A DNA stretch of 45,843 bases from an uncultured Coriobacteriaceae bacterium (GTDB taxonomy: Bacteria > Actinomycetota > Coriobacteriia > Coriobacteriales > CADBOM01). Below the pieces are notes generated by a model, which worked only from the letters and a program-made list of their open reading frames with translations, did not search any database and was not told the DNA's origin. The stretch lies in assembly GCA_964581165.1 (NCBI GenBank), contig CAZOMM010000002.1, positions 1-45,843 on the forward strand, in the 5' to 3' direction. Within the stretch, counting starts at the first letter, position 1. Each line of letters starts with the position of its first letter. Made by a program: the position numbers and the translations under genes. This document shows, one piece after another, positions 1,466-32,783 of the stretch.

Positions 1466-1480
1466 AACTAGGGAATTGCA

Positions 1481-16991: not shown

Positions 16992-17849
16992 ATGGCGGCT
17001 TATAAGACAAGGGCCATCGTACTCAAAAAAACCAAGCTCAAAGAAACTGACCTTATTCTTACGATGCTGGCAGAAAATGGATCACAAATTCGATGTGTTG
17101 CAAAGGGAGCCCGAAAGCCTGGTAACAGCTTTTCTGCCCGTCTTGAGCTTTTTAGCGAGGTTGATATTTTGCTCTACGAGGGTAAAAATCTCGACACCGT
17201 AACCGAAGCTCGCATTGTTGAATCCAACGAGGCATGCCGCAGCGATATTGAACATCTCTCGTATGGTGCTGTTGTTGCTGAGTTTGTAGAAAAGACAGCT
17301 TTGGAGGGACAGGAAAATCCGATCATGTTCCCCCTCACTCAAACCGTGCTTAGCTCTATCGGCCAGTCTCGGCCAGACATGCTCTCCTATATGGCGGCAG
17401 CCTATCTGCTTAAGGCTATTGCATATCTTGGGTATCGTCCTTCTTTTGATGAGTGCACAATTTGCGGTGAGTCGGTCTCCGCATTTTCAAATGCTCAAGG
17501 AACATCTAGTCAGGGAACATTTAACCAAGGGGCACTTAGCCAAGGGGCATCTAATCAGGGAGTATCTAAACAGGGAACATTTTTGATTACATCTGGAGGA
17601 TGGGTTTGTCCTGACTGCACAGCTGCAGGAGAGCTAGAATCTGCAGATCTTGTGGATCCTGAAATTGTCGGCTGGGTAAAGGCTCTTTTGAGGCTTAAGT
17701 TCACTGAGATTTTGGATTTACTAAACTCCAGCGACAAGGGCTATGCAGCTCTAGCCGGAGAGTTGTTGACTTTTTGTGAACATTGGCTTGCAGAGCATCT
17801 AGGTCTGCACCTTAAATCTCTGGGATATCTCTCGCGCATCAGTGCTTAA
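16992..17849 (+). CDS. recO: DNA repair protein RecO with an internal 15-nt coding repeat
   Basis: N-terminal OB fold (KTRAIVLKKTKLKETDLIL), zinc-finger cysteines CTICG...CPDC, and era-recO synteny. A QG-rich insertion lies at 17496-17582. Confidence 0.85.
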   Translation: MAAYKTRAIVLKKTKLKETDLILTMLAENGSQIRCVAKGARKPGNSFSARLELFSEVDILLYEGKNLDTVTEARIVESNEACRSDIEHLSYGAVVAEFVEKTALEGQENPIMFPLTQTVLSSIGQSRPDMLSYMAAAYLLKAIAYLGYRPSFDECTICGESVSAFSNAQGTSSQGTFNQGALSQGASNQGVSKQGTFLITSGGWVCPDCTAAGELESADLVDPEIVGWVKALLRLKFTEILDLLNSSDKGYAALAGELLTFCEHWLAEHLGLHLKSLGYLSRISA

Positions 17850-17878
17850 AGCCAGTGCCTAAAGCCAGTGCTTAAAGC
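17840..17878 (+). repeat. three tandem 13-mers (CAGTGCYTAAAGC) containing the recO stop
   Basis: cagtgcttaaagc cagtgcctaaagc cagtgcttaaagc, read directly. Confidence 0.85.
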
Positions 17879-18187
17879 AGTATCTATTAAGTACTAAACA
17901 CACTTACATAGTGAACATATCTCTCGTGCATCAGTACCCGAAGTAGCACTTACTAAATGTTAAGCACGGTTGCATTTTGCACATCCTTGAGCACGAAGCT
18001 TTGCATGTTTTCCAATTTTGTTTGTGTTCAAATTTGACTTCTCAAGTATGCGTGATACTGAGTCCATTAAGGATAACTTGCCTTGATTTGCTCTTTAACA
18101 ACAACGAACGCAATCCCGTATTTGTGCTTGAGTTGCAGTAAACAAGGTGAGCTTAGGCCTGCTATTTTTATTTAGAGGGAGGTTAAC

Positions 18188-20644
18188 GTGTACCAATTTC
18201 GAGAAATCTCGCCGCGTATAGCCCACATGCGCGATCTGGTGCGTGATAGATGCATCAGAGTCGATGCCGAGCGCGGCAAGATAGTTACTGAAAGTTGGAA
18301 GAAGTATGGGAGCAATCCTCCGCTGATTAGAAGGGCACTGATGCTTCGCGACATTTGTGAGCAGATGACAGTGCGGGTTGAGGATTTTGAGATCATCTTT
18401 GGCAACAAGGGTGTTGAGTTTTGCGGCAATGGCGTTTATCCCGAGTGGGGCACATCTTGGTCGTGGATTACCGGAGCTGTAAAAGCAGGAGAGTGGAAGC
18501 TCGAAGACGACGGCTTTTACCACAGCCCCAAGGATGCCAAGGTTCCTACAAGGGTTTCTCCCAAAGATTATGAAGAGTTACTTGAGCTAGAGGAGTGGTG
18601 GACTCCCGATAAGTGGGCTGGAGCTATGACATCGTCATGGCAGCCTGATTACTACGAAGAGCTTAAGTCGCTGTGTGCAACTCCTTATACCGATCACAAC
18701 ATTGGAATTCTAACTTTGCCCCTGGGTCACGATATTGCTGGTTACGAAAAGATCATTCGCCAGGGATATAAGTTGATCCACGATCAGGCTGTTGCTTGGA
18801 TAGAAGAACATCGCGGCAATTTGCTTGGACACGATGTCGAACGATATCTCTTCTACAAGGCTGTTGAGATTGTTACCGAGGGTGCAATGACTTTGGTTAA
18901 GCGCTATGCAGCCAAGGTAGCAGAAAAGGCCGCCGAGTGCACAGATGCAGATCGCAAGGCTGAGCTAGAGAGAATGTCTGCCAGCCTAGAGTGGATTTCT
19001 GAAAACCCAGCCCGTGACTTCTGGGAGGCTGTGCAGGGAATTATGATGTATCAGGTCTTCATTTGTCAGGAGACCAATATTCCATCGCCTGCACTTGGAC
19101 GTTTTGATCAGTATGTCTGGCCATATCTAGAGAAGGATCTCGCTGAGGGTAAGCTCACTATGGATCAGGCCCAGGAGATAGTGGATGCCTTCTTCCTTAA
19201 GTGCAATTGCTACTATTCGGCTGCCCCTGATGCCGTAACTACTATTACGGGAGTTGGAAACACCTATCAGCACACAACAATTGGTGGTGTCGATCGAGAA
19301 ACCGGCGAGGATGCCACTAATCCTGTTACTTTTATGGTGCTCGAGACTGTTGGTCGTTTAAAGCTGCATGATCCGACTATATCGCTGCGAATCAACAAGG
19401 ACACCCCAGAGGAGCTTTGGGAGTGTGCACTTACCACCTCTAAGCTGGTTGGCGGACTACCTTTGTTCCAAAACGACGAAGTTATTATCCCCACGCTCAT
19501 GAAGCAGCGCCACTTTACTCTGCGCGATGCCCGCGATTATGGACTCATCGGATGCCAGGAAGTTGTCGGATGCGGAAACGACTGGCCGGCAGGAAATGGA
19601 ATGCATCCACCAAATGCAACAATCTATTGGTCTGTAATCTTGGACATGGCCCTGAACAATGGTCAAAATCCAATGAACAAAGCGCAGGCAAGCCTGAAAA
19701 CTGGCTATCTCTACGAGATGACCAATATCGAGCAGGTACACAATGCCTTTGAGAAGATGCTTCGCTACATCTTTAGAATGTTCATCTCAACGCAAAATTA
19801 CTCCGAGTATGTTTCTCGTTGGGAGTGCCCACAGCCTGGTTTCTCGATGTCTATCGAGGGCTGTATGGAGTCGGGATACGATGTTGTAAATGGTGGGGCC
19901 AAGTACAACGCCTTTGGTGGAACTGCTACTGGTCTAGCCACTGTTGCAGACTCCTTTACTACTATCAAATACATGTGCTTTGACAACAACTTCTGCACAA
20001 CCCGCGAACTCTACGATGCCTTTATGGCTAATTGGGAGGGCTATGAGGAGCTTCGTGCTCGCATTCTTAACGAGGTGCCTCACTATGGCAATGCCGATCC
20101 TTATGCAGATGTTGAGCTTAAGTGGTGTGTGGATCTGTGGGTGCAGCTATGCTCCGAGGTCTATGGCATGAGAACCGATGTGTACACCGCTGGTATGTAT
20201 GGTGCTGCCGATCATGTGGCGCAAGGTTATGAGACATGGGCTACTCCGGATGGTCGCCTTGCTGGAACTCCCATCGCCGATGCGATGAGTCCGGCACAGG
20301 CTCGTGACAAGAATGGTCCTACGGCTATCTTCCAGTCGACTTGCTGCTTTGATCACCATCGATTCTTGGGCGGAATGGCGCTCAACATCAGGATGCATCC
20401 CACGGTGTTTTCCAATGATAGCGGTGTTCAGAAGTTGGCAGATATGACTCAGGCTTACTTCGAGAACGGAGGAATGGAAGTTCAGTACAACGTAGTCGAT
20501 ACCGACACTCTGCGCGATGCACAAGAAAATCCAGAGAAGTATCACAATCTAGTGGTTCGCATTGCCGGTTACTCGGCCTACTTTGTAGAGCTGGATCGTG
20601 ATCTGCAAAACGACATCATTGCTCGCAACGAGAACATAATCTAG
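18188..20644 (+). CDS. glycyl radical enzyme, PFL2/dehydratase-lyase-like, substrate unknown (paralog 1)
   Basis: 818 aa. C-terminal glycine radical motif VVRIAGYSAYFVEL (Gly794, nt 20567-20569). Thiyl loop LIGCQE (Cys456 at 19553-19555, Glu458). GTG start with AGAGGGAGG upstream. Confidence 0.9.
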   Translation: MYQFREISPRIAHMRDLVRDRCIRVDAERGKIVTESWKKYGSNPPLIRRALMLRDICEQMTVRVEDFEIIFGNKGVEFCGNGVYPEWGTSWSWITGAVKAGEWKLEDDGFYHSPKDAKVPTRVSPKDYEELLELEEWWTPDKWAGAMTSSWQPDYYEELKSLCATPYTDHNIGILTLPLGHDIAGYEKIIRQGYKLIHDQAVAWIEEHRGNLLGHDVERYLFYKAVEIVTEGAMTLVKRYAAKVAEKAAECTDADRKAELERMSASLEWISENPARDFWEAVQGIMMYQVFICQETNIPSPALGRFDQYVWPYLEKDLAEGKLTMDQAQEIVDAFFLKCNCYYSAAPDAVTTITGVGNTYQHTTIGGVDRETGEDATNPVTFMVLETVGRLKLHDPTISLRINKDTPEELWECALTTSKLVGGLPLFQNDEVIIPTLMKQRHFTLRDARDYGLIGCQEVVGCGNDWPAGNGMHPPNATIYWSVILDMALNNGQNPMNKAQASLKTGYLYEMTNIEQVHNAFEKMLRYIFRMFISTQNYSEYVSRWECPQPGFSMSIEGCMESGYDVVNGGAKYNAFGGTATGLATVADSFTTIKYMCFDNNFCTTRELYDAFMANWEGYEELRARILNEVPHYGNADPYADVELKWCVDLWVQLCSEVYGMRTDVYTAGMYGAADHVAQGYETWATPDGRLAGTPIADAMSPAQARDKNGPTAIFQSTCCFDHHRFLGGMALNIRMHPTVFSNDSGVQKLADMTQAYFENGGMEVQYNVVDTDTLRDAQENPEKYHNLVVRIAGYSAYFVELDRDLQNDIIARNENII

Positions 20645-20815
20645 CTGCGAGTTTTGGATGCGAGCGTTTGGGTAGGAGTACTAGGCGCGAGTGTCTAGGT
20701 GGTTTTAGTTGGCGGTTCTGCTTGTTAGTTGGCGGTTCTGTTTGGTAATTGCTAACTAGTTAGAACTGATAGGCGGTTCTGCTTGCTGGTAGTTACTTAG
20801 AGTTGGTAGTTAGTA
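20645..20815 (+). repeat. degenerate local tandem duplications downstream of GRE1
   Basis: tagttggcggttctgcttgt / tagttggcggttctgtttgg / ataggcggttctgcttgctgg, and gcgagttttgg / gcgagcgtttgg / gcgagtgtctagg. Confidence 0.6.
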
Positions 20816-20889
20816 ATTTCTCAAGGCAAATAAGATATGGGAGCTGTTTGTCAATCAATTAAACATGCAGCGATCCGTAAAGAAGAAGG

Positions 20890-20919
20890 CTGGGTCGTAT
20901 CCATTGAGATACGGCCCAG
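20890..20919 (+). terminator. possible terminator hairpin between the two GRE genes
   Basis: CTGGGTCGTAT / ATACGGCCCAG is an 11-bp stem with one G-U pair and an 8-nt loop. The tail (TCTTTAG) is only weakly T-rich. Confidence 0.35.
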
Positions 20920-21187
20920 TCTTTAGTATGGGCTTGGTCTTTGGTCTTTAACATGGTTTCGATCTTTTATCATGTGCAATTTAGACAATCTAAAGTGCAT
21001 CAAAGTGCCAATACGTAAAACTTAATCTTGAGTGCTTTTTAAATTTCATAAGTTTGAATGCTTGTCTGCTCATAAGAACTACAATTGCCGGGTATCTCGA
21101 AATATCTTTTTCGAAACCAAGTACAGCCTTTGTTAAGGACTATGAGTCAGGTTTAACTCGTTTTAAAACTGCAAGGAAGGGAAGACT

Positions 21188-23635
21188 ATGTACGAGATGT
21201 TGCCGGTTTCTGATCGCATGTGGCAAATGCGCGAGGCTGTTAGAGATCGTGTAATTAATTTTGACTCCGAAGTAGCTGTCATTGCCACAGAAGCCGATAA
21301 AGAATGCGGGCCGATGCTGCCATTTCTTAAGCATGCAAAGCTCATGAAGGCAATTCTTTCTAAGAAGAGCTGTCGCGTTGAGGACTTTGAGATGCTTGTT
21401 TGCAACAAGGCCCGTGATTTTTGCGGTAACTCCGAGAATCCTTTTTGGGGTGCCGGATTTAGCGTAATGGCTGGAGTGCAGTCTGGTCGCTGGACTCTGC
21501 GTGACGATGGCTACTATCACAACCCCGATGATGCTGAGTGCCATATGTCTTGCAAGAAGGAAGACTACGAGATCTTTTTAGAGCTTGCTGACTATTGGAA
21601 GGACAAGACCCCCAACGCAGTCATTATGCAGTCGATTCCCGAGGGGTACAAAGAGATCTGTCGCGTTGGTGGCTCGCCTTGCGGAGATGCAATGCCTACC
21701 ATCATGATGCCGGCAGGACACCTGACTCCCGGATACCAGAATCTTGTGAGGCTGGGTTATGGCAGCATTCGCAAGCAGGCACAGGATTGGCTCGATGCTC
21801 ACTACAACGATCTGATGGGCGAGGACACTGATAAGTGGATGTTCTACACCGCTATGATCGACTATATCGATGGCATGATTGCTCTTACCAATAATTATGC
21901 CGATGCTGTTGAGGCAAAGATTGCAGAGACCACTGATGAGGCTCGCAAACAAGAGCTCATTGAGATGGCAGATGGTCTGCGCTGGATTGCCACTCGTCCT
22001 CCACGTAATTTCCGTGAGGCTTGCCAGATGCAACTCATCTACATGCAAAGCATCTTCCACGAGGGCATTGGTGATATCGGTTCTTCGGGTCGTTTCGATC
22101 AAAACATGTGGCCATTCCTTAAAAGCGACCTTGAGACCGGTGCTTTGACAATGGAGCAGGCGCAGGAGATAGTTGACTGCTTCTTCCTAAAAATCAATGG
22201 CTTCTATGGCGGTGGCGAGGGTGCACTGGCTCAGATTGTAGGAATTGGTAATACCTATCTACACACCACTGTTGGTGGCGTTGATCCTGATACTGGCGAG
22301 GATGCCACCAATCCTTTGACCTACATGGTTTTAGCTGCTGTTGGTCGTATGAAGCTACATGATCCTACAATCTCTTTGCGTGTTAACAAGGACACCCCAG
22401 ATGACCTTTGGGATCTTGCAATTCGCGTAAACAAGATGGTAGGCGGGCTTCCTCTGTTCCAAAACGATGATGTAATCATTCCTGGAATTATGCGTGAGCT
22501 TGGATTTAGTCTTCGTGATGCTCGCGATTATGCGATCATCGGTTGCCAGGAGATCACAGGCCAAGGAACCGACTATGCATGCTGCAATGGAGTAATTCCT
22601 CCAAACACCAATTTGCATTATTCGGCATTGCTAACCATGGCTCTTAATGATGGTACTAATCCCACCACAAAAGAGCAGTCGTCGGTGCACACCGGATTTT
22701 TGTATGAGATGGAAAACATCGATCAGGTAAAGGATGCTTGGTACAAGATCGCAGAGTATACGCTGCGAGCTGTTATGTCGATGAACAATCTCTGTGAGCA
22801 CATCATCCAGCATTACACCCCGTATCTGTCGCTGTCTGCATTTATGGATAGCTGCATGGAGCGCGGAATGGACTGCACTTGGGGTGGCTGCAAGTACAAC
22901 GAGTATGGTGGAACTGCAACTGGTCTTGCCACCGTTGCCGACTCCTTGTCTGCCATTAAATATATGTGCTTTGACAATGATTACTGCACAACCCGTGAGC
23001 TATACGATGCTGTTATGGCTAATTGGGAGGGTTACGAGGAGCTTCAGGCCAAGATTATCAAGGAAGCTCCGCACTTTGGAAATGGCGATGCCGATGCCGA
23101 TGCAATGATGGATTGGGTCACCAATGCCTACTATGAGATGTCAAACCGTATCTACTCCAAGCGTGCTAAGAAGTTCCGCTCTGGTCTTTACGGCGCATCC
23201 GACCATGTAGCACAGGGTTATGTGACCTGGGCAACTCCTGATGGACGTGTTTTGGGCGAGCCCATCGCAGACGGTGCATCCCCTGTACAGGGTCGCGACT
23301 CTAATGGGCCAACTGCCGTCTTGTCTTCGGCCAATTGCTATGATCACACCAAGTTTATGGATGGAATGGCACTAAACATTCGCATTCATCCGTCTGCCCT
23401 TTCTCGCCAAGATGGAATTGATAAGCTACGCGATATGACAAAGGCTTATCTGGACGATGGTGGTATGGAAGTTCAGTACAACGTGGTGTCTACTGAGGAT
23501 ATGAAGGCAGCGCAGGAAGATCCTCAGAAGTACCGCGACATGGTAGTTCGTATTGCTGGTTACTCGGCCTACTTTGTTGAGCTTTCTACAGATCAGCAAA
23601 ACGACCTTATTTCTCGTACTGAGAATGGTCTGTAG
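21188..23635 (+). CDS. glycyl radical enzyme, PFL2/dehydratase-lyase-like, substrate unknown (paralog 2)
   Basis: 815 aa. VVRIAGYSAYFVEL (Gly791, nt 23558-23560). IIGCQE (Cys453 at 22544-22546, Glu455). Collinear with paralog 1 at roughly 55-65% identity by eye. Confidence 0.9.
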   Translation: MYEMLPVSDRMWQMREAVRDRVINFDSEVAVIATEADKECGPMLPFLKHAKLMKAILSKKSCRVEDFEMLVCNKARDFCGNSENPFWGAGFSVMAGVQSGRWTLRDDGYYHNPDDAECHMSCKKEDYEIFLELADYWKDKTPNAVIMQSIPEGYKEICRVGGSPCGDAMPTIMMPAGHLTPGYQNLVRLGYGSIRKQAQDWLDAHYNDLMGEDTDKWMFYTAMIDYIDGMIALTNNYADAVEAKIAETTDEARKQELIEMADGLRWIATRPPRNFREACQMQLIYMQSIFHEGIGDIGSSGRFDQNMWPFLKSDLETGALTMEQAQEIVDCFFLKINGFYGGGEGALAQIVGIGNTYLHTTVGGVDPDTGEDATNPLTYMVLAAVGRMKLHDPTISLRVNKDTPDDLWDLAIRVNKMVGGLPLFQNDDVIIPGIMRELGFSLRDARDYAIIGCQEITGQGTDYACCNGVIPPNTNLHYSALLTMALNDGTNPTTKEQSSVHTGFLYEMENIDQVKDAWYKIAEYTLRAVMSMNNLCEHIIQHYTPYLSLSAFMDSCMERGMDCTWGGCKYNEYGGTATGLATVADSLSAIKYMCFDNDYCTTRELYDAVMANWEGYEELQAKIIKEAPHFGNGDADADAMMDWVTNAYYEMSNRIYSKRAKKFRSGLYGASDHVAQGYVTWATPDGRVLGEPIADGASPVQGRDSNGPTAVLSSANCYDHTKFMDGMALNIRIHPSALSRQDGIDKLRDMTKAYLDDGGMEVQYNVVSTEDMKAAQEDPQKYRDMVVRIAGYSAYFVELSTDQQNDLISRTENGL

Positions 23636-23751
23636 GTTTTGGGTGATTCTGGACAAACAGACCATGGTTGTCTAAGTGAGAATGGTTGCAGGTTTGGATA
23701 AGTTCTAGAGACAACTAGATATCAACAAGCCATTTAAGCAAAAAATTAACA

Positions 23752-23785
23752 GGGGAGAGATCGCAGGGTCTCTCCCCATTCTTTA
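23752..23785 (+). terminator. rho-independent terminator after GRE2
   Basis: GGGGAGAGATC-GCAG-GGTCTCTCCCC (11-bp stem with one G-U pair) followed by ATTCTTTATGTTTT. Confidence 0.7.
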
Positions 23786-24155
23786 TGTTTTCTCACAGGG
23801 TTTTTTCACAGGCCTTAGCTGCCGTGGGGCAAGTGAATGAGTGCTTGATCTTGTGGGGGCATGCGCTAGCAAACTTTATTTTTTCTTGCTAACTCTTTTA
23901 AGTCTTTCATTTGGTTTAAAAGCTCTAGAGGTCTTGGCAAACTACAGAGGTATTTGTAATGCTACTTTATAAATTTGTTTACTCAATATTGTTTAACGAA
24001 GAAAGAAAATGCTAGATTGATAGCTGAGAAATCTGAAAAGCGCCAAGGCTAGCGCTGCAAAAGTACCAAAGCTAGCTTTGTAAAAATTGAATACTGCTTG
24101 CATTTTGTTTACAAAAAACTGAATAACAGTCTGACAAATAATATAGAAAGCATTG

Positions 24156-25697
24156 ATGGAAACAAAAGAATCTATAACTGGTGGATTACTTAATTTTAGA
24201 CATTTCGACATTTCTAATTTTGGAATGGGAATGTCTAGGACGTGGTTTATAACACTACTTTGCTGTCCCGTCTTGGTGCCTCCGTCTTTGCTTGAAAATA
24301 TGCAAGATTTTCAAATGCATAATCTGCGTTTGACAATGTTTATAGTTGCAAGTTTCGTATATTTTACGGTTCAGTTTTTTCCTAGATTAATACTGAGCAG
24401 ACAAATCAAGATTTCGATTGCAATAATAGCCGCTTTAATAATTCCACTTCCAATAATCGATTGTCTAATTCCTCAAGTAAGTGCTTTTTTGGATGCAACT
24501 CCTGCTCTCAGATACATTATTTGGGCTTTACTTGGCTTTGTTACTGCTGTTAATTCGATGCTCAGCTACGACTTTAATGTGGATTTTTTGCAAGAAAAAC
24601 GAGAAGCTGGAGCCATTTTAAGTTCAATATTCGCTGGCATACTATTCATACTTTTTCAGTTGCTTGATTACGAGGTTTCACTGATTTTGATTGGTCTTAC
24701 ACCTATTACTGTTATAGGGATATCTCTGTATAAGAACCTGAGCAAGTCAATTAATTCAGATGATAATAATGAGGAATTAGAAGGGCTTGATTTGGCTCTT
24801 ACTACATATGTTCACAGAACCCTGGGTAGTCGATCGAACTATTTTGTATTCAGTTCTGCCCTCTTTTTTGGCATAAGCGCTGCTATAGGATCATCTTTTG
24901 AATACATGCAATATTCAATGTTTTTTGTAGGTATACCTCATATTGCAGCTGGACTTATTCTTTACCTAATTCTTAAATTTCATTCAGTTGGAACGGGGAG
25001 AATTTCGTTGCTACTTGATCTTATGTTTACAAAGATGGGATATGCCCTGATTCTTCCCTGTGCAACAACATGTTTCTTATTTCTGTCATTTCTATCTGGC
25101 AAAGGAGCCATGATAGTTTTATCACTGATGTTTTTTGTAGCTGCTCTTTATAACATCCTAAATATCTCTTATAAGGACAAGGATGATAGTTCGACCAAAG
25201 ATTTTAAGGGCTTTGATTTTTTGTGCACAGAAGATAGAGCGTTTTACATGGCAGGCACGGCGCTTGGTTGGTTTGCCGGAACAACCGTTGTATATATAGT
25301 GAGTCCAAGTTATACGCCTATATCATATTTCTCATTTGCAGTGATATACATGATATTGTCTTTGATCTTTATCGTTCAATTTAATGAGAATGAATTAGAG
25401 AAAAAGAATCAAGCCAAAGAATCTGAGGAAGAATTATTGGATACCCCTCGCGAAAATGTTCTTTGTAAGTTCCAAGATGTGTGCGGTGATTTTTCGGGTC
25501 AATACAGTCTCTCCAAAAGAGAGAGTGAGGTTTTTGGATATTTAGCCAGAGGTCACAACAGAGAGTACATTAGCAAGAAACTTTGCGTATCATCGTCAAC
25601 AATCAGATATCACGCTTACAACATCTATAAAAAAATGGATATCAGCAATCAACAAGAGCTGATAGAAATGGTGAACGATAAGTTTTTTAAGCTGTAA
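24156..25697 (+). CDS. polytopic membrane LuxR/GerE-family transcriptional regulator
   Basis: About 10-12 predicted TM segments over about 430 aa. The C-terminus LSKRESEVFGYLARGHNREYISKKLCVSSSTIRYHAYNIYKKM is a LuxR-type HTH. The gene is AT-rich (32-37% GC in two sampled 60-nt lines). Confidence 0.8.
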   Translation: METKESITGGLLNFRHFDISNFGMGMSRTWFITLLCCPVLVPPSLLENMQDFQMHNLRLTMFIVASFVYFTVQFFPRLILSRQIKISIAIIAALIIPLPIIDCLIPQVSAFLDATPALRYIIWALLGFVTAVNSMLSYDFNVDFLQEKREAGAILSSIFAGILFILFQLLDYEVSLILIGLTPITVIGISLYKNLSKSINSDDNNEELEGLDLALTTYVHRTLGSRSNYFVFSSALFFGISAAIGSSFEYMQYSMFFVGIPHIAAGLILYLILKFHSVGTGRISLLLDLMFTKMGYALILPCATTCFLFLSFLSGKGAMIVLSLMFFVAALYNILNISYKDKDDSSTKDFKGFDFLCTEDRAFYMAGTALGWFAGTTVVYIVSPSYTPISYFSFAVIYMILSLIFIVQFNENELEKKNQAKESEEELLDTPRENVLCKFQDVCGDFSGQYSLSKRESEVFGYLARGHNREYISKKLCVSSSTIRYHAYNIYKKMDISNQQELIEMVNDKFFKL

Positions 25698-26047
25698 AAG
25701 GCCTTTCCAAAATCGTTGAGATGCATAAATACCCACTCATCATAAGGTCCTCTTCCCTTCATATTTATATGCCTTAAATATTAATAGCTTTTAATTTTCA
25801 ATATTAAAAATCGGCCCATAACGGGCATTTCCATACTTTTTTACAGTATTTGCCTTTAAGTCCAAAAACAACAATGAATCTTGTGCTGCACTGCAGTCTT
25901 TATGTATCCAACTTGAATGCAAGAGCCTGTACTGGTTTTGGCTTGTTGTACAGGAGGCTGCAGTAAGGGATGCGTGTTGACAAGGAGGGGTTAAGCATAT
26001 TCGGACAAGTTTGCAGCTAAGGGTTTGAAGTGAAAGGGGGTTCTTGA

Positions 26048-26078
26048 GATTTAAGTGTGGATTTAAGTGTGATCACAC
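26048..26078. promoter_or_regulatory. tandem 12-mer (GATTTAAGTGTG x2) overlapping a perfect 12-nt palindrome GTGTGATCACAC
   Basis: The 12-mers are at 26048-26059 and 26060-26071, and the palindrome is at 26067-26078. They lie 19-50 nt upstream of the transporter start. Confidence 0.3.
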
Positions 26079-26096
26079 GGTTTATGGTTAGGTATT

Positions 26097-27596
26097 GTGA
26101 GTAAGAGAGTGGGTGTATCTGTAATGGCAAGCGCTGAGGAAAAGGCAAGTGCAGAAAACAGTACGGTTAATAAGAAAAAAAGAGATGGCCTAAGTCGGCC
26201 CCTAAGGATGTTCTATGGTATAGGTGACTTAGGCTTTACGTTTATGTCGAACGTAGAAACTTACTTTTTTAATTTCTTCTTAACTAACTTGGCACAGTTT
26301 TCTCTTCCGATAGTCTCGGTGATAACAACTATTACGAGTACTGTTGATGCTGTTACATCGTGGATGTATGGTGCCATTCTAAACAGCATCAATCCAAAAA
26401 AATGGGGACGTTATCGTTCTTGGTTAATTTTACTTCCTTGGATTGTTCCATTTTTGTATGCGTTTCAGTTCATCAAACTAGGTGATAGCATTCTTTCGGT
26501 TGTTGTGATTGTTGTAGCAACTATTGTCAGTCATATTGCTTGGAATATCCCCTGGGTGGCCAATGCATCCATGATTGCAGTTGCAGGAAAAACACCAGAA
26601 GAAAGAGCGCATCTGTCTTCTATGCGAGCTTTTTGGACAAATCTGTCCAAGATATTCTTCTCTTATATAGCAACACCGATGGCTGCAGTATTTGCAGGAG
26701 TAATCGGCGAGACCAACCAATATGGAGCTGTGGCTTTTGTTTTTGGTTGTCTTATGGCGGTTTTATATTTTGCACATTTTAAGATGTTTGATGGCTATGA
26801 GGAGGTAGACGTAGAACTCCTCAAGCAGAAAAAAGGGGAAAGAAAGAAAAAGGAAGACAAGGGTAAGACATCTCCTAGCGATCTGCTTAGGGCATTGGCA
26901 CAAAATCCTCCACTCATATTCCTTTTGATCTCAGATCTTGCAAAATACATGTTTAATTTTGTCGTTGCTGGAACTGCCACTTATTACTTTGTGTACGTGG
27001 CCCAAGACGCAACTCTAACAGCAGCCTATATTATGATTGCCAACATTTTTGCTGTAATTGGCTCTTATCTGGCAAAAACTTTAATTAAGAAATTATCCGT
27101 AAGAACCACAACATTTTGCACATACATAGCGATGGGAATTCTACTGATTGCCGCATTCCTTGTATATACAAATGTTTGGCTCGTAATTGCGCTAATGTCG
27201 TTGACACAAGCTGGGTATGGTATCGTGTATGCCTGCGGGCCGGCTTTGTATTCGGACACAATTATTTATTCGGAGTGGAAAACCGGGAAAAACGCAACAG
27301 GCTGGATCAGCGGACTACAAACTGTTCCATTAAAAATAGGAGTTGTAACCAGAGGAATCATCATAACGGCGTGTCTGGCCTTGGGAGGTTTTGTATCAGA
27401 CATGGATCCCAGTTTGGCAACAACTGGATTGCAGCAAGCAGTTTGCCTAAGTTTCATGGTTGTCCCAGCTATCGCCTTGTTTATTGGTGGTCTATTAATG
27501 ATCTTTGGGTACAGACTTACACAAAATAAGGTTGTTATGTATCAGGAAGAAATAGCAGCACGATCCAACAAGACAGATAGCTCCGAGGAGAAATAA
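26097..27596 (+). CDS. GPH-family (glycoside-pentoside-hexuronide:cation symporter, MelB/YihO/UidB-like) transporter
   Basis: N-terminal FYGIGDLGF motif typical of GPH/MFS-2, and about 12 TM segments. The start is uncertain (GTG 26097 or ATG 26124). Confidence 0.8.
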   Translation: MSKRVGVSVMASAEEKASAENSTVNKKKRDGLSRPLRMFYGIGDLGFTFMSNVETYFFNFFLTNLAQFSLPIVSVITTITSTVDAVTSWMYGAILNSINPKKWGRYRSWLILLPWIVPFLYAFQFIKLGDSILSVVVIVVATIVSHIAWNIPWVANASMIAVAGKTPEERAHLSSMRAFWTNLSKIFFSYIATPMAAVFAGVIGETNQYGAVAFVFGCLMAVLYFAHFKMFDGYEEVDVELLKQKKGERKKKEDKGKTSPSDLLRALAQNPPLIFLLISDLAKYMFNFVVAGTATYYFVYVAQDATLTAAYIMIANIFAVIGSYLAKTLIKKLSVRTTTFCTYIAMGILLIAAFLVYTNVWLVIALMSLTQAGYGIVYACGPALYSDTIIYSEWKTGKNATGWISGLQTVPLKIGVVTRGIIITACLALGGFVSDMDPSLATTGLQQAVCLSFMVVPAIALFIGGLLMIFGYRLTQNKVVMYQEEIAARSNKTDSSEEK

Positions 27597-27599
27597 TCG

Positions 27600-27755
27600 A
27601 AGCTAGCGTTTTAGGAATTTTTGGGGAGTCTAGGTCGGGGAAGTCTAGATCCCGCAGGTTTGGAAGTATAGGTTTCGCAGACTAGGTTTCGCAGTCTGGG
27701 AAGTCGAAGTCCCATAGGCTAGGGAGCCTAGGTCGGAAGCCTAGATCCCGAAGAC
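27600..27755 (+). repeat. degenerate local tandem duplications downstream of the transporter
   Basis: gtctaggtcggggaagtctagatcccg ... gcctaggtcggaagcctagatcccg, and taggtttcgcagac / taggtttcgcagtc. Confidence 0.6.
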
Positions 27756-27778
27756 ATAAAATGCAGTAGCCCAAATAA

Positions 27779-27814
27779 AGAGACCCAGCTGGAATAAATT
27801 TCAGCTGGGTCTCT
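27779..27814. terminator. bidirectional terminator hairpin between the transporter and pknB
   Basis: AGAGACCCAGCTG-gaataaattt-CAGCTGGGTCTCT, a perfect 13-bp stem between convergent genes. Confidence 0.7.
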
Positions 27815-27965
27815 ATCCGTCTTATTTGCTGTTAGCGACGCTTGTTTTACGTTGAGTTTTTCCCAGATCCATTGGCCCTTGCTCACACCTGAGCTCACAC
27901 ATAAGACTCACACATAAGGCTCAGATCTAATACAGAACCCGCTTCAAAAGAAGCTCTAAGCAACA

Positions 27966-29900
27966 TTATTCTGTACTATCCGTTCCTTCGTCATCAGAGG
28001 AGGAGGAACTTCCAGATACTGTAATAGCTACTGTGTCGTCTAGAGATACCTCAGTGCCACTACTTGGGTTGGTTGATATGACATAACCCTCATCAACGCT
28101 GCTCGAGGTCTGATAAACCACGTAATACTTTAGTCCAGCAGATGTGATCCTGCTAATTGCTGTACTTTCGTCTAGTCCAACTACGTTTGGAACACTAACT
28201 GTAGATGAATCAGATGAATCATCATCAGGAGTAGTCGTAGTTGGAGCTGTTGCGACTGTAATTGTGATGCTGCTACCCGGATTTACAACTTCACCCGAGT
28301 TTATGCTCATAGCAATTACTGTACCGCTTGTCTCATCCGATTCTTGAGTCTGCACTGTAACACTGAGTCCTGCACTTCTAAGAGCCGAGACTGCTGCGCT
28401 TTCTGTCATTCCCATAACCGAAGGTACGGTGGTGCCAGAGGATGGATAAATCGTGATTGTAGTTCCCTCGTCTACTAGGGTTCCAGCGCTTGGATCCTGT
28501 GCAGCAACATAGCCGATAGAAACTTCTGTAGACTGCACAGCATTGCCTGTTACAACCTGCAAGTTAAGTGCCGAGAGCTCTTCTGTGGCCTCTTCTATTG
28601 ACATGTTCTTTAGATTTGGAACGCTAACCTGATTTGCTGGTGGTTCTCCCTGAGAAATTACAAGATCAACAGATGAATTTTCGGCAAGTTCGGTTCCGGC
28701 TTCGGGATTTTGTTTCATCACTTCGCCAGCTTCGTATTCGCTGCTGTAATCCTGAGTAACCGTACCGACTTTGTAGCCTGAATTTTCGAGAGCCTGCTCA
28801 GCCTCTTCTTGAGTCATTCCAAGTACATTTGGAACAGTTCCGCTGGCAGTTCCTCCTAAAAGTCCAAATCCAATAACGCAGCCAATAATAGCTATAGCAA
28901 CAACAACACAAACGCCAATGATGATATTTCGCTTGCGGTTTGACTTTTTGCCCTTACTCGATTTTGCGTCAGCTCCATTTTGGGCAGCAAACACCTGGGT
29001 TTTATTAGCGCCCTCTCCAAGAACTCTGGTGGCATCGGCTTCTGCAAGAACTTGGGTTTCATCGGCATTGCCAAGATTGATTGGAATGCCGTTTATATAA
29101 TCCATAAGCGTTGTGCGCATTTCGCTTGCAGTAGAAAAGCGATCTTTTGGATCTTTTTCCATAGCCTTGAGGATGATCTCCTCAAGATCCGAATCCATAG
29201 TGGGGCAGTAAACACTTGGGGGAACGGGAGTCTCGTTAACCTGTTTGAGTGCAACCGAGATAGCATCTGGCCCTTCAAAGGGGAGTCTTCCGGTAACGGC
29301 CTCATACATTAGGATGCCCAAGGAATAGATATCCGACTCTGCGGTGGGTGTTTTGCCCTGTGCCTGCTCGGGCGATACATAGTTGGCAGTTCCTAAAACA
29401 GAGCCAGTTTGAGTCATAGTAGAATTGCCGGCTTTGGCAACTCCAAAGTCCATGATTTTGATGTTTCCATCGGGCTGGATCATAATGTTTTGCGGTTTGA
29501 TATCGCGATGGATTACATCGTTATCATGCGCAACTGAAAGACCTGCACATATTTGGGAGGCAATATGAGCCACCTTGCGCTGTTCGATTGTTCCACGCTG
29601 CGCAATGGCGGTTTTAAGATCAACGCCCTTTACAAACTCCATGACTATGTAGTAGGTCTCTCCATCTAGACCCCAGTCATAAATGCTAACTATATATGGG
29701 CTAGAAAGATTTGCCGCTGCCTGAGCTTCTTGTCTAAAGCGCGCTGCAAATGTTGGATCCGATGCAAATTGCGGGAGTAGTACTTTAACAGCATCGGTGC
29801 GTCCCAAAACCTCGTCTTGAGCCTTGTAGACCTCGGCCATGCCGCCGATGCCAACTCTCTCGAGAATTTTGTACCGAGAGGCGATGACCTTATTTATCAA
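27966..29900 (-). CDS. pknB: Ser/Thr protein kinase PknB with four PASTA domains
   Basis: Hanks kinase motifs (GIGGMAEVYKA, HRDIKPQN, DFG), one TM segment, and four C-terminal PASTA-like repeats (VPNVLGMT.., VPNLKNMS.., VPSVMGMT.., VPNVVGLD..). Confidence 0.9.
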   Translation of the reverse strand: MINKVIASRYKILERVGIGGMAEVYKAQDEVLGRTDAVKVLLPQFASDPTFAARFRQEAQAAANLSSPYIVSIYDWGLDGETYYIVMEFVKGVDLKTAIAQRGTIEQRKVAHIASQICAGLSVAHDNDVIHRDIKPQNIMIQPDGNIKIMDFGVAKAGNSTMTQTGSVLGTANYVSPEQAQGKTPTAESDIYSLGILMYEAVTGRLPFEGPDAISVALKQVNETPVPPSVYCPTMDSDLEEIILKAMEKDPKDRFSTASEMRTTLMDYINGIPINLGNADETQVLAEADATRVLGEGANKTQVFAAQNGADAKSSKGKKSNRKRNIIIGVCVVVAIAIIGCVIGFGLLGGTASGTVPNVLGMTQEEAEQALENSGYKVGTVTQDYSSEYEAGEVMKQNPEAGTELAENSSVDLVISQGEPPANQVSVPNLKNMSIEEATEELSALNLQVVTGNAVQSTEVSIGYVAAQDPSAGTLVDEGTTITIYPSSGTTVPSVMGMTESAAVSALRSAGLSVTVQTQESDETSGTVIAMSINSGEVVNPGSSITITVATAPTTTTPDDDSSDSSTVSVPNVVGLDESTAISRITSAGLKYYVVYQTSSSVDEGYVISTNPSSGTEVSLDDTVAITVSGSSSSSDDEGTDSTE

Positions 29901-30030: not shown

Positions 30031-32769
30031 TTACAGAGCATCTAGTGCTACAAGTGCAGATTGTAAAATGCTTCCGACTGTTGAGCTTACCGAACTGGTC
30101 GAATCCTCAACAACTATGGCGATTGTTACGCTTTGCCCATTGGCGGTTGCTGTGCCAATAAACCAAGAGTTGTCATCTTCTACGCTAGTTTGTGCAGTTC
30201 CGGTTTTGCCTACAACTTCGGCTCCGCTAACTTGCGCAGCCGTTCCGGTTCCGCTAGAGACAACCTGGGCCATGGCTTGGCTTACCTGCTCAGCAGTTTC
30301 AGCGCTTACCACTTGAGCATAAACACTTGGGCTGGTGCTTGTAATAATGGCACCCTCTGGCGAGCTTATGTGATCCACTACGTAGGGGGTCATTATCTGT
30401 CCATCGTTGGCCATTGCAGCTGCAACCATGGCCATTTGAACGACCGTAGCTTGAGGTCCTGCTGGACTTTCGTGCTCGCCAACAGGCTGGCCCACAGCCG
30501 CCCAAGCAGTTTCCCATAAAGTCATCTCATCGGGATCGGGCATGAGCGATGTAGTTATCCCAAAATCGGTATCTATTGTTGAGTTAAAGCCAAAGGTTTC
30601 GGCTCCGCTAACTAGTGTCTCTGATCCAATCTCGGTTCCAATTTGGGCAAATACAGTATTGCTGGATACTGCAAATGCGCGAACCAAAGATATGGTTCCG
30701 TAATCAGTTTCATTGATTGTGGAGATCTGACCTCCACCGATATCGATAGTTCCTGGAGAGTCGTAAGTGGAATCGAGTGTGGCAATTCCATTTTCGATTG
30801 CAAGAGCTAAAGTGAGCGTTTTAAATGTAGAACCTGGAGCGTAAAGTCCATAAGTTGCCCTATTAAAGAGAGCATCTGAGCTGACTTCTCCAGAAAGATA
30901 GCTGGCAACATCGTTTACATCGTAGGTAGGTGAGGAAGCCATAGCCAAAACCGCGCCAGTTTCTGGATCAAGTAAGATTGCTGCTCCGACCTTGCCTTCG
31001 AGTGCATCTTCTACAGCCTGTTGGATCTCTGAGTTAATGGTTAATGTGACATTATTGCCCGGATTAGAAATACCAGCTAGAGAGTTTATGGCTGCTTGTA
31101 TGGTAGAGAAATCCTGTTCACCCGTTAGGGTTTCGTTTAAAGAAGACTCAAGACCGGTCGAGCCATACTGAGTAGAGTAATAACCCAGTAGATGAGCCGC
31201 CAAGTCGCCCTGTGGGTAGTTACGCTCATACGAACCATCTTCTTGCTCGATAGATTCTGCTAAAACCACTCCATCCGATGTAAAGATCGAACCTCTTTCT
31301 ACGCGTTGACTTTTAGCTATTGTGTGATTGTTGGTGCTAAGCGATTTAATCTCATCTGCGCGTACGACCATAATGTCTGTAAGGTTTGCAATCAAAAGTG
31401 CAAATAAAACAGCAAATATGGTAAGCATTCTTGTTATGCGCTTGCCTAGAGCCACACGGCCTAAAATTCCAACATCGTGTTTGTGTGAGGCAGAAGTAAG
31501 CTCAGCGCTTCTGCCCGGGGCATCGTCGCCAGTTCTTAACAGCAAGCCCACAATAATGAAGCTCGATATTAGCGAAGATCCACCTTGGCTCATAAACGGA
31601 AGGGTCACACCAGTAAGGGGGATCAATCCGGTTACGCCTCCAACGATTACAAAGGCCTGAAACGATATAGAGGCTGTAAGGCCCACAGCAGCAAAGGCAT
31701 CTACATCACGTCTGGCACGAGCGGCGGTAGCAAACCCTCTAATGCAGAAAAGCAAAAAGGCAATTAGCACACCGGCTGCTCCTAGAAGACCCATCTCCTC
31801 GGCAATGGCAGCAAAGATAAAGTCGCTTTCGACAACGGGAATGCTAGTGGGCAAACCCTCTCCAATGCCAACTCCTATCATGCCTCCGTCGGCCATTGAA
31901 TAGAGGGCTTGAACTAGCTGATACCCATCGTCTTGAGCATATGCAAAGGGATCGAGCCAAATAGCTATGCGTTCTTGAACGTGGCTAAAGCAAAAGTACA
32001 TCACCACAGCGGCTACTGCGAGCAAAAGTACACTTACAAACACGTATCCAAAGCGCCCAGTGCATACATAGATCATTACCAAGAACAGACCAAAAAATAA
32101 AAGGGCGCTACCTAAGTCTCGCTCAAATATTACGATTAGCAGCGAGAGCACCAGCATAAAGATCATCGGAAGCAGGGTTTTAAAGTCGGGAATTTGAATT
32201 CCTAACACCCTGCGCGACGAAACCGATAGCATCTCTCGATTCTCGGCTAGATACGAAGCCAAAAAAATGACAATGAGAATTTTGGCAATCTCGCTTGGTT
32301 GGAAAGAAAAGCCGCCTATGCTAAGCCAAATTTTTGATCCATAGTGCTCTGTACCTATCACTGCAGGCAAAAGTAGCAGGATGATACCCAAGAGCATGAT
32401 TGTGTATTTGTAACGCGAAAGCGCATTGATAGATCGCACCAAAATAAGAGTTACGACCATCATTGCCACACCAGTAAAAAGCCAAATGAGTTGGTTAGTA
32501 GCTAAATCGGGTGCGAGTCTAAACACAAAGATTATGCCTATACCCGAAAGCAGATATGTGAGTGGCAATAGGGCATTGTCGGCATTGGGTGCCAATGCAC
32601 AAATTGCAAAGTGCGAGGCAATAAAGGCTATAAAAAGACCAATTGGAACAGCTAGCGTTTCTGGCGTGATCTCTGTGCCAGAACTAATCATAAACATTGC
32701 AAACAGCAAGCCCAAAATGGGAGTTGCTGCCAATATTAAATAAAGCTCAGTAGATCTCCAGCTGCGCAT
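30031..32769 (-). CDS. fused SEDS glycosyltransferase (RodA/FtsW family) and class B penicillin-binding protein transpeptidase
   Basis: The N-terminal ~440 aa form a polytopic FtsW/RodA/SpoVE-like domain (..GVTLPFMSQGGSS..). A linker and TM segment (MLTIFAVLFALLIANL) follow, then a bPBP with STFK, SSN and KTGTA motifs. It is one uninterrupted frame. I prefer the ATG at 32769 (AGGTGA upstream); a GTG at 32778 is possible. Confidence 0.85.
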   Translation of the reverse strand: MRSWRSTELYLILAATPILGLLFAMFMISSGTEITPETLAVPIGLFIAFIASHFAICALAPNADNALLPLTYLLSGIGIIFVFRLAPDLATNQLIWLFTGVAMMVVTLILVRSINALSRYKYTIMLLGIILLLLPAVIGTEHYGSKIWLSIGGFSFQPSEIAKILIVIFLASYLAENREMLSVSSRRVLGIQIPDFKTLLPMIFMLVLSLLIVIFERDLGSALLFFGLFLVMIYVCTGRFGYVFVSVLLLAVAAVVMYFCFSHVQERIAIWLDPFAYAQDDGYQLVQALYSMADGGMIGVGIGEGLPTSIPVVESDFIFAAIAEEMGLLGAAGVLIAFLLFCIRGFATAARARRDVDAFAAVGLTASISFQAFVIVGGVTGLIPLTGVTLPFMSQGGSSLISSFIIVGLLLRTGDDAPGRSAELTSASHKHDVGILGRVALGKRITRMLTIFAVLFALLIANLTDIMVVRADEIKSLSTNNHTIAKSQRVERGSIFTSDGVVLAESIEQEDGSYERNYPQGDLAAHLLGYYSTQYGSTGLESSLNETLTGEQDFSTIQAAINSLAGISNPGNNVTLTINSEIQQAVEDALEGKVGAAILLDPETGAVLAMASSPTYDVNDVASYLSGEVSSDALFNRATYGLYAPGSTFKTLTLALAIENGIATLDSTYDSPGTIDIGGGQISTINETDYGTISLVRAFAVSSNTVFAQIGTEIGSETLVSGAETFGFNSTIDTDFGITTSLMPDPDEMTLWETAWAAVGQPVGEHESPAGPQATVVQMAMVAAAMANDGQIMTPYVVDHISSPEGAIITSTSPSVYAQVVSAETAEQVSQAMAQVVSSGTGTAAQVSGAEVVGKTGTAQTSVEDDNSWFIGTATANGQSVTIAIVVEDSTSSVSSTVGSILQSALVALDAL

Positions 32770-32783
32770 CAAGCTCACCTACT

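Follow-up and report, generated by a model that had tools for sequence, protein, structure and literature searches.

Two predicted glycyl radical enzymes of a widespread, functionally uncharacterised clade lie without an adjacent activase behind recO in an uncultured Coriobacteriaceae bacterium

The 45,843-nt stretch of an uncultured Coriobacteriaceae genome analysed here (contig CAZOMM010000002.1, positions 1 to 45,843; the window) carries, behind recO, genes for two glycyl radical enzymes (GREs), termed GRE1 and GRE2, and for a membrane LuxR-type regulator and an MFS_2 carrier. By sequence, both GREs are members of a large, widespread and functionally uncharacterised clade of PFL2-type enzymes, named 'GCQE' here after its invariant Cys-loop motif, and most likely are trans-activated radical 1,2-eliminases or isomerases that differ in their substrates. 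The locus as a whole is probably a mosaic accessory island, in which two functional, probably monocistronic GREs of this clade would serve as trans-activated radical eliminases or ring-openers; the adjacent LuxR regulator and carrier may or may not serve them. An earlier note on this DNA had described unassigned GREs together with a Coriobacteriia-type LuxR regulator, and this part of its interpretation stands, whereas the activase anomaly, the duplication, the sugar substrate and the single regulon that it also proposed do not.

Both proteins combine a PFL-like barrel (PF02901, 488 bits for GRE1 and 461 bits for GRE2) with a C-terminal glycine-radical domain (PF01228, 105 and 106 bits), carry the radical glycine in an R-[VI]-x-G-[YF] loop together with the Cys-loop cysteine, and share the motifs VVRIAGYSAYF and IGCQE; translation of GRE1 starts at a GTG behind a GGGAGG ribosome-binding site. 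None of the NCBIfam equivalog cut-offs (994–1150 bits; HpfG, HpsG, HypD, CutC, PflD-type, indoleacetate and 4-hydroxyphenylacetate decarboxylases, PFL) is reached by either protein: the best equivalog is HpfG, with 444 bits for GRE1 and 424 for GRE2 against a cut-off of 1000, the values for HypD being 430 and 391 against 1100 and those for CutC 404 and 349 against 1050, and the cut-off of the TIGR01774 PFL2/glycerol dehydratase subfamily (678 bits) is missed as well (485 and 448). The identity to any solved GRE is at most 30%, the closest being glycerol dehydratase (403 bits; 30% by Foldseek), propanediol dehydratase (29–30%), HypD (27%) and CutC (26–28%). These values bear out the claim that the two are real, intact GREs without an assigned function, and by these scores neither stands close to a GRE of known function (25–30% identity, below all NCBIfam cut-offs).

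The clade itself is broad. In a protein database, 1,219 proteins match GRE1 at E≤1e-50, and the best 120 of these, which are 58–85% identical over the full length and come from Oscillospiraceae, Clostridiales, Spirochaetes, Sporomusa, Sporobacter, Coriobacteriales and others, bear generic names only. A scan of one genome per species returned at least 566 stretches matching the GRE clade, from taxa that include Desulfatiglans, Acidobacteriota, Dehalococcoidales, Acetobacterium, Alkalibaculum, Blautia, Ellagibacter and Paenibacillus, and the clade is found in several hundred species-level genomes of gut, rumen, termite, digester, sediment and peat anaerobes. Two types of GRE occur in the related loci that were fetched (numbered L001 and so on), namely 'GCVE', with an x-H-G loop like that of the known dehydratases, and 'GCQE', the type of GRE1 and GRE2; eight partner GREs, seven of the GCVE type and one of another type, also score below every NCBIfam cut-off. 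The exact sequence of GRE1 is on record solely on contigs of 3 kb or less, and exact-sequence look-ups of GRE2 and of the carrier, for other assemblies of the same locus, gave no record. The literature on GREs in connection with ether cleavage, lignin, polyphenols, Eggerthellaceae or LuxR yielded nothing on the GCQE clade. The 'glycyl radical' label of a tetrahydrodaidzein reductase (TDR) in PMC11572103 is based on an RVxG motif, which according to that review not all TDRs conserve; this enzyme is presumably unrelated.

The statement that no activase lies in or near the locus was borne out across the 45.8 kb. Pfam scans of all large open reading frames (ORFs) of the window revealed two radical-SAM proteins only, at 7389–8663 (HemW-like by gene order after lepA-dus, a label from position alone) and 12517–13884 (UPF0004 and Radical_SAM domains, MtaB type), and no activase; a six-frame scan of the window for CxxxCxxC found the motif, among long ORFs, only in these same two genes; and a tblastn search of the window with 22 activases from related GRE loci gave a best E value of 0.08, so that no activase pseudogene remnant is indicated. 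The earlier note took this absence as an anomaly, on the ground that PFL2-class GREs are almost always encoded beside their activase, a rule which does not hold for the GCQE clade. In 88 related loci, for which ORFs were called, neighbours clustered and activases re-counted by tblastn, a 319-aa protein adjoins the GREs in 22 loci by clustering, and its representative scores 332 bits against the GRE-activase model TIGR02494 (cut-off 174); by tblastn, an activase is present in 23 of the 84 loci that carry a GCQE-type GRE, while 37 of these 84 have more than one GRE. Among the well-flanked loci (at least 7 kb on either side of the GRE block, n=34) an activase occurs in ten. It is found in only three of the 24 well-flanked loci with GCQE-type GREs alone, the 21 without it being spread over many phyla, and in seven of the eight that also carry a GCVE-type GRE. 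Two metagenome-assembled genomes (MAGs) each contain one locus with an activase and one without (L037 versus L072; L060 versus L089). The orphan state is a trait of the clade and not an anomaly of the window, and since the adjacency rule fails for the clade the window is typical, with no assembly artefact to be invoked; the suggestion that an assembly error had removed an adjacent activase also loses ground, the orphan arrangement being the usual one and tblastn having detected no fragment.

Because both genes appear to be under purifying selection and the Gly loop is invariant, the simplest reading is that each GRE would be activated in trans, the gene of the activase lying at some other place in the genome. 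In Escherichia coli, PFL-AE activates both PFL and TdcE, which have the same Gly loop (PMC13450708); this service of PflA to PflB and TdcE at different loci provides a precedent, the Gly loop of the GCQE clade being likewise invariant, although the E. coli activase adjoins one of its clients, whereas no client–activase pair is seen at the present locus. A grouping of one GCQE-type GRE, one GCVE-type GRE and a single activase was observed in L028, L033, L035, L037, L042 and L051, all Oscillospiraceae MAGs, and the same pairing in L018, L044, L049, L052, L065, L078, L087 and L100. In the Oscillospiraceae the pairing has a fixed neighbourhood, with a MocR-like regulator, a MaoC-like protein and a 276-aa protein without a family match, and further with aldehyde ferredoxin oxidoreductase-like, iron alcohol dehydrogenase-like and AMP-ligase/carrier-protein-like genes, names that were read from the sequences without family tests. 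Such GCQE plus GCVE loci, in which neither GRE type is functionally characterised, look like a conserved pathway with two radical enzymes.

Regarding the active site, Cys456-Gln-Glu458, His181, the Gly loop RIAGYSAYFVEL and many barrel residues (GRE1 numbering) show no variation among 15 clade members. Aligned with glycerol dehydratase, GRE1 retains the residues matching His164 and Ser282, and the histidine aligning with His164 is kept by both GREs; Pro299 and Pro475 of GRE1 stand at His281 and Asp447, the Cys-loop hairpin of the clade has a 4-residue insertion (G-C-G-N-D-W-P-A-G-N-G), and GRE2 diverges further in the 294–304 loop. The substrate-binding set of glycerol dehydratase, His164, His281, Ser282 and Asp447 (structure 1R9D; in part PMC13450708), is therefore not conserved as a whole. 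All characterised GRE eliminases and isomerases have a C-x-E motif, the Glu of which hydrogen-bonds a substrate hydroxyl (PMC13450708, a 2026 review), and both GREs present it as GCQE, the motif alone being compatible with a decarboxylase too. Since the conserved catalytic machinery fits, the motifs suggest a radical 1,2-elimination or ring opening beside a hydroxyl. In the mechanism proposed, a TIGR02494-type radical-SAM activase encoded elsewhere, with that of another GRE locus in the genome as the candidate, would convert each GRE to its radical form; the activated enzyme would abstract the hydrogen atom adjacent to a substrate hydroxyl, the C-x-E glutamate would deprotonate this hydroxyl, and a neighbouring leaving group (OH, OR or similar) would be expelled, the outcome being a 1,2-elimination or ring-opening to a carbonyl product. 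The membrane LuxR protein would probably sense a small molecule and switch on the neighbouring genes, and the MFS_2 carrier would probably import a small molecule.

The structure prediction that had been proposed as a check yielded a fold-level match and no pocket comparison, the active-site loops having predicted local distance difference test (pLDDT) values below 50; the AlphaFold2 model of GRE1, built from a 15-sequence alignment, has a mean pLDDT of 66 and was used for fold-level matching alone. By sequence and by structure, the GREs are matched best (403 bits; Foldseek E = 2e-42) by the B12-independent glycerol dehydratase of Clostridium butyricum (1R8W/1R9D) and by 1,2-propanediol dehydratase (R. 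inulinivorans 5I2G; 9RCO), which have the same fold and size and share with the GREs the Gly loop, the Cys in C-x-E, the His164-aligned residue and, in GRE1, the Ser282-aligned residue. Unlike these dehydratases (29–30% identity), the GREs of the window have Pro at the H281 and D447 positions, a 4-residue insertion after the Cys loop and GCQE in place of GCVE, and their locus contains neither an adjacent activase nor microcompartment genes. YbiW and PflD, which open the ring of 1,5-anhydrohexitol-6-phosphate, and HplG are likewise PFL2-type enzymes with C-x-E, whose reaction begins with hydrogen abstraction next to a hydroxyl (PMC13450708), and match the GREs with 307–352 bits and about 26–27% identity in the PDB; YbiW and PflD are associated with sugar-type carriers or phosphotransferase systems (PMC13450708), in contrast to the present locus, which has no aldolase or kinase genes and a carrier whose relatives point away from sugars.

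GRE1 and GRE2 are 51% identical over the full length. The closest relatives of GRE1 are L001_6 (85%), L002/L010 (79%), L003 (78%, truncated at the contig end) and L011 (76%), and that of GRE2 is L076_2 (84%), the next ones being at about 60%. L001 and L076 are two contigs of one MAG, uncultured Coriobacteriaceae SRP141132_co1_281, with the GRE1 ortholog between two MFS_1 carriers on the former and the GRE2 ortholog in tandem with a third GRE, adjoining rpsO-pnp, on the latter. With orthologs at 85% and 84% on different contigs of the same related MAG, among different neighbours, the 'duplicated enzyme pair' of the earlier note gives way to two genes which, by these comparisons, are placed in separate orthogroups, with no recent local duplication. 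The orthogroups differ in all the loops that line the pocket in glycerol dehydratase (YTDHNIG..PLGHD, ETxIPSPALG and GCGNDWPAGNGMHPPNAT in the GRE1 group; CGxxMP..PAGHL, HEGxxxIGSxG and GQGTDYACCNGVIPPNTN in the GRE2 group), for which reason the two enzymes would be expected to act on different, possibly related, compounds. The ratio of nonsynonymous to synonymous substitution rates (dN/dS) against orthologs is 0.06 and 0.03 for GRE1 and 0.04 for GRE2, rough values given that dS is saturated, and points to strong purifying selection on both GREs, which appear to be working genes with different specificities.

The organisation of the locus argues for separate transcription. GRE1 follows the recO stop codon after 338 nt and GRE2 follows GRE1 after 543 nt, and a 17-bp hairpin (20885–20924; –32.3 kcal/mol, z = –5.9, with none of 200 shuffles folding as well), located 240 nt past the GRE1 stop codon and followed by UUUAGUAU, is the likely GRE1 terminator, while a second hairpin at 23752–23777 has an 11-bp G+C-rich stem and a U-rich tail (–22.5 kcal/mol, z = –4.5). 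GRE1 and GRE2 are probably monocistronic and separately transcribed. Rfam searches of the whole window at gathering thresholds, and of 17800–28000 at E≤1, returned only tRNAs and chance matches; no family being found in the long leaders, a riboswitch is not indicated. A search of the five intergenic regions for a shared operator (14-mers with at most one mismatch, both strands) gave one weak match between the GRE1 and GRE2 leaders, at about chance level; no conserved block emerged when the sequences upstream of GRE1 and GRE2 were aligned with those of their orthologs, and no convincing small ORF was seen in the 543-nt and 517-nt gaps. The G+C content at third codon positions (GC3) is 0.52 in the GREs, 0.33 in the LuxR gene and 0.38 in the carrier gene, compared with 0.40–0.47 in most flanking genes. 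The hairpins between genes, the GC3 range of 0.33–0.52 and the failure to find a shared operator or riboswitch speak against the view that the four genes form one inducible pathway. Short repeats are frequent in the region: a 13-nt tandem repeat CAGTGCTTAAAGC in three copies (17840–17878) spans the recO stop codon and opens the GRE1 leader; three copies of GGCGGTTCTGCTTG occur at 20705–20785, between the GRE1 stop codon and the terminator hairpin, two of them inside a 20-nt tandem unit and the third 61 nt further on; and a degenerate copy of the last approximately 20 nt of GRE2, stop codon included (GAGAATGGTCTGTAGGTTTTGG), occurs 56 nt downstream (GAGAATGGTTGCAGGTTTGG; 23621–23700), possibly left behind by a small duplication or marking a recombination joint. 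Within recO, a 15-nt repeat of 5.4 copies (17500–17580) appears to match a Q/G/S-rich insertion of the protein, and a comparable low-complexity insert is present in the L010 RecO.

A variable gene island follows recO in several related Coriobacteriales, the region being colinear with these relatives up to recO. The comparison of the recO–pknB interval suggested earlier was made on the recO side and showed variable content, with a GRE1 ortholog after recO in L175/L010, L177 and L011, where its partners are an MFS_1 carrier, a PucR regulator, a TIM-barrel protein, an OYE reductase or a second GRE, and with no GRE after recO in L176, L178, L189 or Atopobium fossor. The nearest Era sequences, from uncultured Coriobacteriales and Coriobacteriaceae MAGs, are 76–84% identical, and that of Atopobium fossor, the nearest named relative, 52%. 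One of the contigs compared, L178 (CAVFRF010000063.1), is labelled 'Bacteroidaceae bacterium' and carries lepA-dus-...-era-recO with 76–82% protein identity to the window, the bin being probably mislabelled or contaminated.

The LuxR protein has a C-terminal GerE/LuxR helix-turn-helix at residues 452–507, behind about 10–11 hydrophobic segments by hydropathy, and thus presents the polytopic N-terminal domain (10–12 transmembrane segments) and C-terminal GerE of the Coriobacteriia membrane LuxR regulators. Its gene has a G+C content (GC) of 0.36, well below that of host genes. Only eight full-length relatives at E≤1e-30 were found among 1.84 billion representative proteins, the identity to any homolog is at most 34%, and the relatives in genomes, including weaker ones, are almost all from Eggerthellaceae and other Coriobacteriia, in agreement with the regulator type proposed in the earlier note. 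Membrane LuxR regulators with 10–12 transmembrane segments control catechol dehydroxylases in Eggerthellaceae (PMC11585353); the present protein resembles them in its size of about 500 aa, its polytopic N-terminal part and its C-terminal GerE, and differs in that those regulators adjoin molybdoenzymes, whereas this one adjoins GREs and an MFS_2 carrier. Around the full-length homologs in L099 and L100, Pfam identifies, in this order, an MFS gene on the minus strand, the LuxR gene, a small protein, two molybdopterin oxidoreductases of about 870 aa (one of them with the AhtL-like domain of pyrogallol hydroxytransferase), a 4Fe-4S subunit and a URO-D-like gene; L095 shares this arrangement as far as the Fe-S subunit, L099 contains an OYE reductase in addition, and similar ORF sizes are seen in L096–L098, L101 and L102, which carry full-length LuxR homologs. 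In L100, a GCVE-type GRE, an activase and a GCQE-type GRE that is 57% identical to GRE1 lie immediately upstream, with the LuxR gene 1.7 kb away. The context of the closest LuxR homolog, P0244, is an uninformative 1.9-kb contig. As a separate observation, the cassette downstream of the LuxR homologs is conserved in Eggerthellaceae (L095–L102, for example 9626–17470 of L100) and comprises a small protein (about 105 aa), a pair of paralogous molybdopterin oxidoreductases (about 860–880 aa) with an AhtL-like N-domain, a 4Fe-4S subunit with CarboxypepD_reg and a URO-D-like gene, a composition that resembles catechol-dehydroxylase or transhydroxylase systems.

The carrier meets Pfam MFS_2 (PF13347), while it misses the GPH cut-off TIGR00792 (152 versus 231 bits) and all the related equivalogs (MelB 112 versus 456, YagG 107 versus 610, glucuronide transporter 88 versus 528 bits). 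Because homology to its relatives begins at residue 22 of the ORF, the ATG at 26124 is the likelier start; the gene has a GC of 0.41. The relatives at 62–68% identity are Lachnospiraceae (Ruminococcus sp. OA3, Blautia schinkii, Lachnoclostridium), and in three contexts of such relatives one or two URO-D genes occur together with an arylsulfotransferase or an arylamine N-acetyltransferase, a PucR regulator being present in one, and no glycosidase, kinase or aldolase was found. The sugar-derived substrate considered possible in the earlier note, an idea which rested on the GPH label, is not supported by a carrier below the GPH cut-off with relatives in such company. Among the neighbours of the clade GREs, the recurrent ones are a BaiCD/OYE-type Fe-S flavoenzyme (16 loci), a URO-D/MtaA-like protein (11) and an SDR (11), together with LysR regulators, the 276-aa protein without an NCBIfam match and, by a look at the sequences only and with no family test, aldehyde:ferredoxin oxidoreductase-like and iron-type alcohol dehydrogenase-like proteins; an aldehyde dehydrogenase lies beside clade GREs in Ellagibacter and in an Eggerthellaceae MAG. 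Neighbours that process aldehydes and enones are compatible with a carbonyl product, and the relatives of UroD include the Methyltransferase I enzymes that act on methoxylated aromatics (PMC13222342). Three independent lines, the clade neighbours, the carrier relatives and the LuxR relatives, point, circumstantially and as the weakest step of the argument, to a plant-phenolic or other aromatic-derived hydroxylated substrate in preference to a sugar.

Several points weigh against the interpretation given here. The LuxR regulator and the carrier are tied to the GREs by adjacency alone, with no operator and no conserved upstream regions, and they are not recurrent partners of the clade GREs in the 84 loci, the sole neighbour resembling this carrier among the 88 loci being a GPH-like gene of L018, 20% identical and flanked by two GREs. 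Activation in trans is an inference for this genome; C-x-E also occurs in GRE decarboxylases, so that the motif does not prove the reaction class; and the AlphaFold model has pLDDT values below 50 at residues 422–477 and 763–818, around the active site. The URO-D and OYE enrichment was set against a rough estimate of background frequency and not a computed control, and the clade neighbourhoods are heterogeneous, some of them, with a split transketolase, a Zn-dependent alcohol dehydrogenase or a sugar-isomerase-like TIM barrel, fitting a polyol or sugar; the clade is therefore probably multi-substrate.

Other explanations differ in how well they accommodate these data. The locus might be no functional unit at all, with independently acquired genes at a recombination-prone spot after recO and with GRE1, GRE2 and the LuxR–carrier pair serving unrelated processes. 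This agrees with the divergent GC3 values of the GREs, the regulator and the carrier, the strong hairpins behind both GRE genes, the finding that the nearest MAG has its GRE1 and GRE2 orthologs at separate loci, the pairing of GRE1 orthologs elsewhere with another transporter, a divergently transcribed MFS_1, the varying content behind recO among relatives and the Lachnospiraceae origin of the carrier's nearest relatives; it is nevertheless somewhat unlikely, as the genes next to membrane LuxR regulators of this class are usually under their control (PMC11585353), a full-length LuxR homolog is next to the GRE–activase–GRE block in L100, and carriers are common beside clade GREs. The version of the earlier note, a single pathway, induced by its substrate, for a sugar-derived compound that the cell imports (glycoside, uronide, sulfosugar or anhydro-sugar) with the GREs acting on related sugars, appears improbable: the terminator-like hairpins, the lack of a shared operator, the carrier scores below the GPH cut-off and far below those of MelB, YagG and the glucuronide transporter, the URO-D, arylsulfotransferase or N-acetyltransferase genes (and no glycosidase, kinase or aldolase) next to its closest relatives, and a Pfam survey of the window with no sugar kinase, aldolase or glycosidase next to the locus all run counter to it, even though the carrier belongs to MFS_2 and has GPH, MelB and YagG as its best NCBIfam matches, GRE isomerases acting on anhydro-sugar phosphates exist (YbiW, PflD; PMC13450708), and some clade loci contain a split transketolase, an SDR, a Zn-dependent alcohol dehydrogenase or an AP_endonuc_2 TIM barrel.

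Two further possibilities have little in their favour. If the GREs were decaying relics, or the product of an assembly artefact, with an adjacent activase lost or mis-assembled and enzymes that cannot be activated, the 45.8 kb without an activase would be accounted for; this is highly improbable in view of two full-length ORFs with every catalytic motif, dN/dS values of 0.03–0.06, the want of any activase fragment by tblastn, 21 of 24 independent, well-flanked loci from many phyla that are equally orphan, and colinearity with relatives up to recO. That one or both GREs are ordinary members of a characterised family (glycerol/propanediol dehydratase, HypD, CutC, HpfG/HpsG or IslA) can be almost entirely discounted, for although those enzymes provide the best PDB and NCBIfam matches, the scores of 350–445 bits stay far from equivalog cut-offs of 1000–1150, TIGR01774 is missed by both, identity to the solved enzymes is 25–30%, Pro occupies the positions aligning with H281 and D447 of glycerol dehydratase, and the Cys-loop insertion is clade-specific. 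Trans-activated GCQE-clade enzymes in a mosaic island remain the preferred reading.

The features of the locus are collected in Table 1; the description given in the earlier note was accurate, the ORF coordinates, motifs, gaps, hairpin, regulator, carrier and flanks all being reproduced.

Table 1. Coordinates of the GRE locus and its boundaries in the window.
Feature	Position	Strand	Evidence
recO, left boundary	16992–17849	+	RecO_N and RecO_C domains
GRE1 leader, 338 nt	17850–18187	+	Sequence; tandem repeat finder
GRE1, GCQE-clade glycyl radical enzyme (by sequence), 818 aa	18188–20644	+	PF02901, PF01228, motifs
Stem-loop, 17 bp, then UUUAGUAU; likely GRE1 terminator	20885–20924	+	Fold energy
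GRE2, GCQE-clade glycyl radical enzyme (by sequence), 815 aa, other orthogroup	21188–23635	+	PF02901, PF01228
Terminator-like hairpin behind GRE2	23752–23777	+	Terminator scan and fold energy
Polytopic membrane LuxR-type regulator, 514 aa	24153–25697	+	GerE domain, hydropathy
MFS_2 (GPH-like) secondary carrier	26097–27596	+	PF13347, 187 bits
PASTA Ser/Thr kinase (PknB-like), right boundary	27966–29900	–	Pkinase domain and four PASTA domains

According to Pfam scans of the large ORFs, the window is a housekeeping stretch of a Coriobacteriales chromosome, with lepA, dus, a radical-SAM gene, hrcA, dnaJ, an rsmE-type methyltransferase gene, the MtaB-type radical-SAM gene, phoH, ybeY, dgk, era and recO in this order on the plus strand, and a PASTA kinase, an FtsW–PBP (penicillin-binding protein) fusion, PP2C, FHA proteins and a second kinase on the minus strand; GRE1, GRE2, the LuxR regulator and the carrier are the four plus-strand genes between the recO stop and the PASTA kinase. 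The 369-nt spacer between carrier and kinase (27597–27965) is rich in short repeats, both direct and inverted, among them units of some 30 nt (27624 and 27722), an inverted repeat (27777–27816) and a 13-nt tandem repeat (27881–27923), and may be an island junction. Further along, a single 915-aa ORF on the minus strand (30031–32778) fuses FtsW/RodA/SpoVE, PBP dimerisation and transpeptidase domains. The hrcA ORF (8790–10181) encodes 463 aa, of which the Pfam HrcA C-terminal domain covers residues 221–443 only, and the HrcA relative in L010 has 347 aa; the start may have been called too early, or an N-terminal extension may be present. An antisense ORF of 450 aa (9861–11213) has no family match. 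At its left end (1–3700) the window has a lower GC of 0.40–0.43 and contains an AAA_14/DUF4143 ATPase (1481–2848) and two ORFs, 121–1104 on the plus and 2963–3691 on the minus strand, without any Pfam match; this may be another accessory patch.

New GRE functions have repeatedly revealed important anaerobic chemistry, such as choline's conversion to trimethylamine, hydroxyproline dehydration and sulfonate cleavage. The present locus belongs to a well-known superfamily and is neither an anomaly nor a surprise in kind, yet it is a good target for enzyme discovery, for which a GCQE Cys loop with insertion, plus a GNTY[QL]H motif, is offered as a working definition of the clade. For annotation, a missing activase at such loci should not be taken as assembly error or gene decay; for the assignment of function, the cognate activase is usually not adjacent and would best be borrowed from the mixed loci L100, L078 or L028, with candidate substrates chosen, on the evidence of context, among aromatic or plant-derived compounds and not sugars. 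A wider proposal, which for now must be regarded as doubtful, is that the GCQE clade constitutes a new functional class of GREs that would act on the hydroxylated non-aromatic parts of plant phenolics or lignin fragments, normally activated by the activase of another GRE and working alongside URO-D-type O-demethylases, OYE ene-reductases and molybdenum dehydroxylases, with GRE1 and GRE2 as two substrate-specific members in an uncultured gut or rumen Coriobacteriales bacterium. If this were true, the reactions would include, for example, radical dehydration or C–O (ether or ring) cleavage in lignan, flavonoid, phenylpropanoid or quinate-type compounds, and one activase would serve a family of GRE paralogs.

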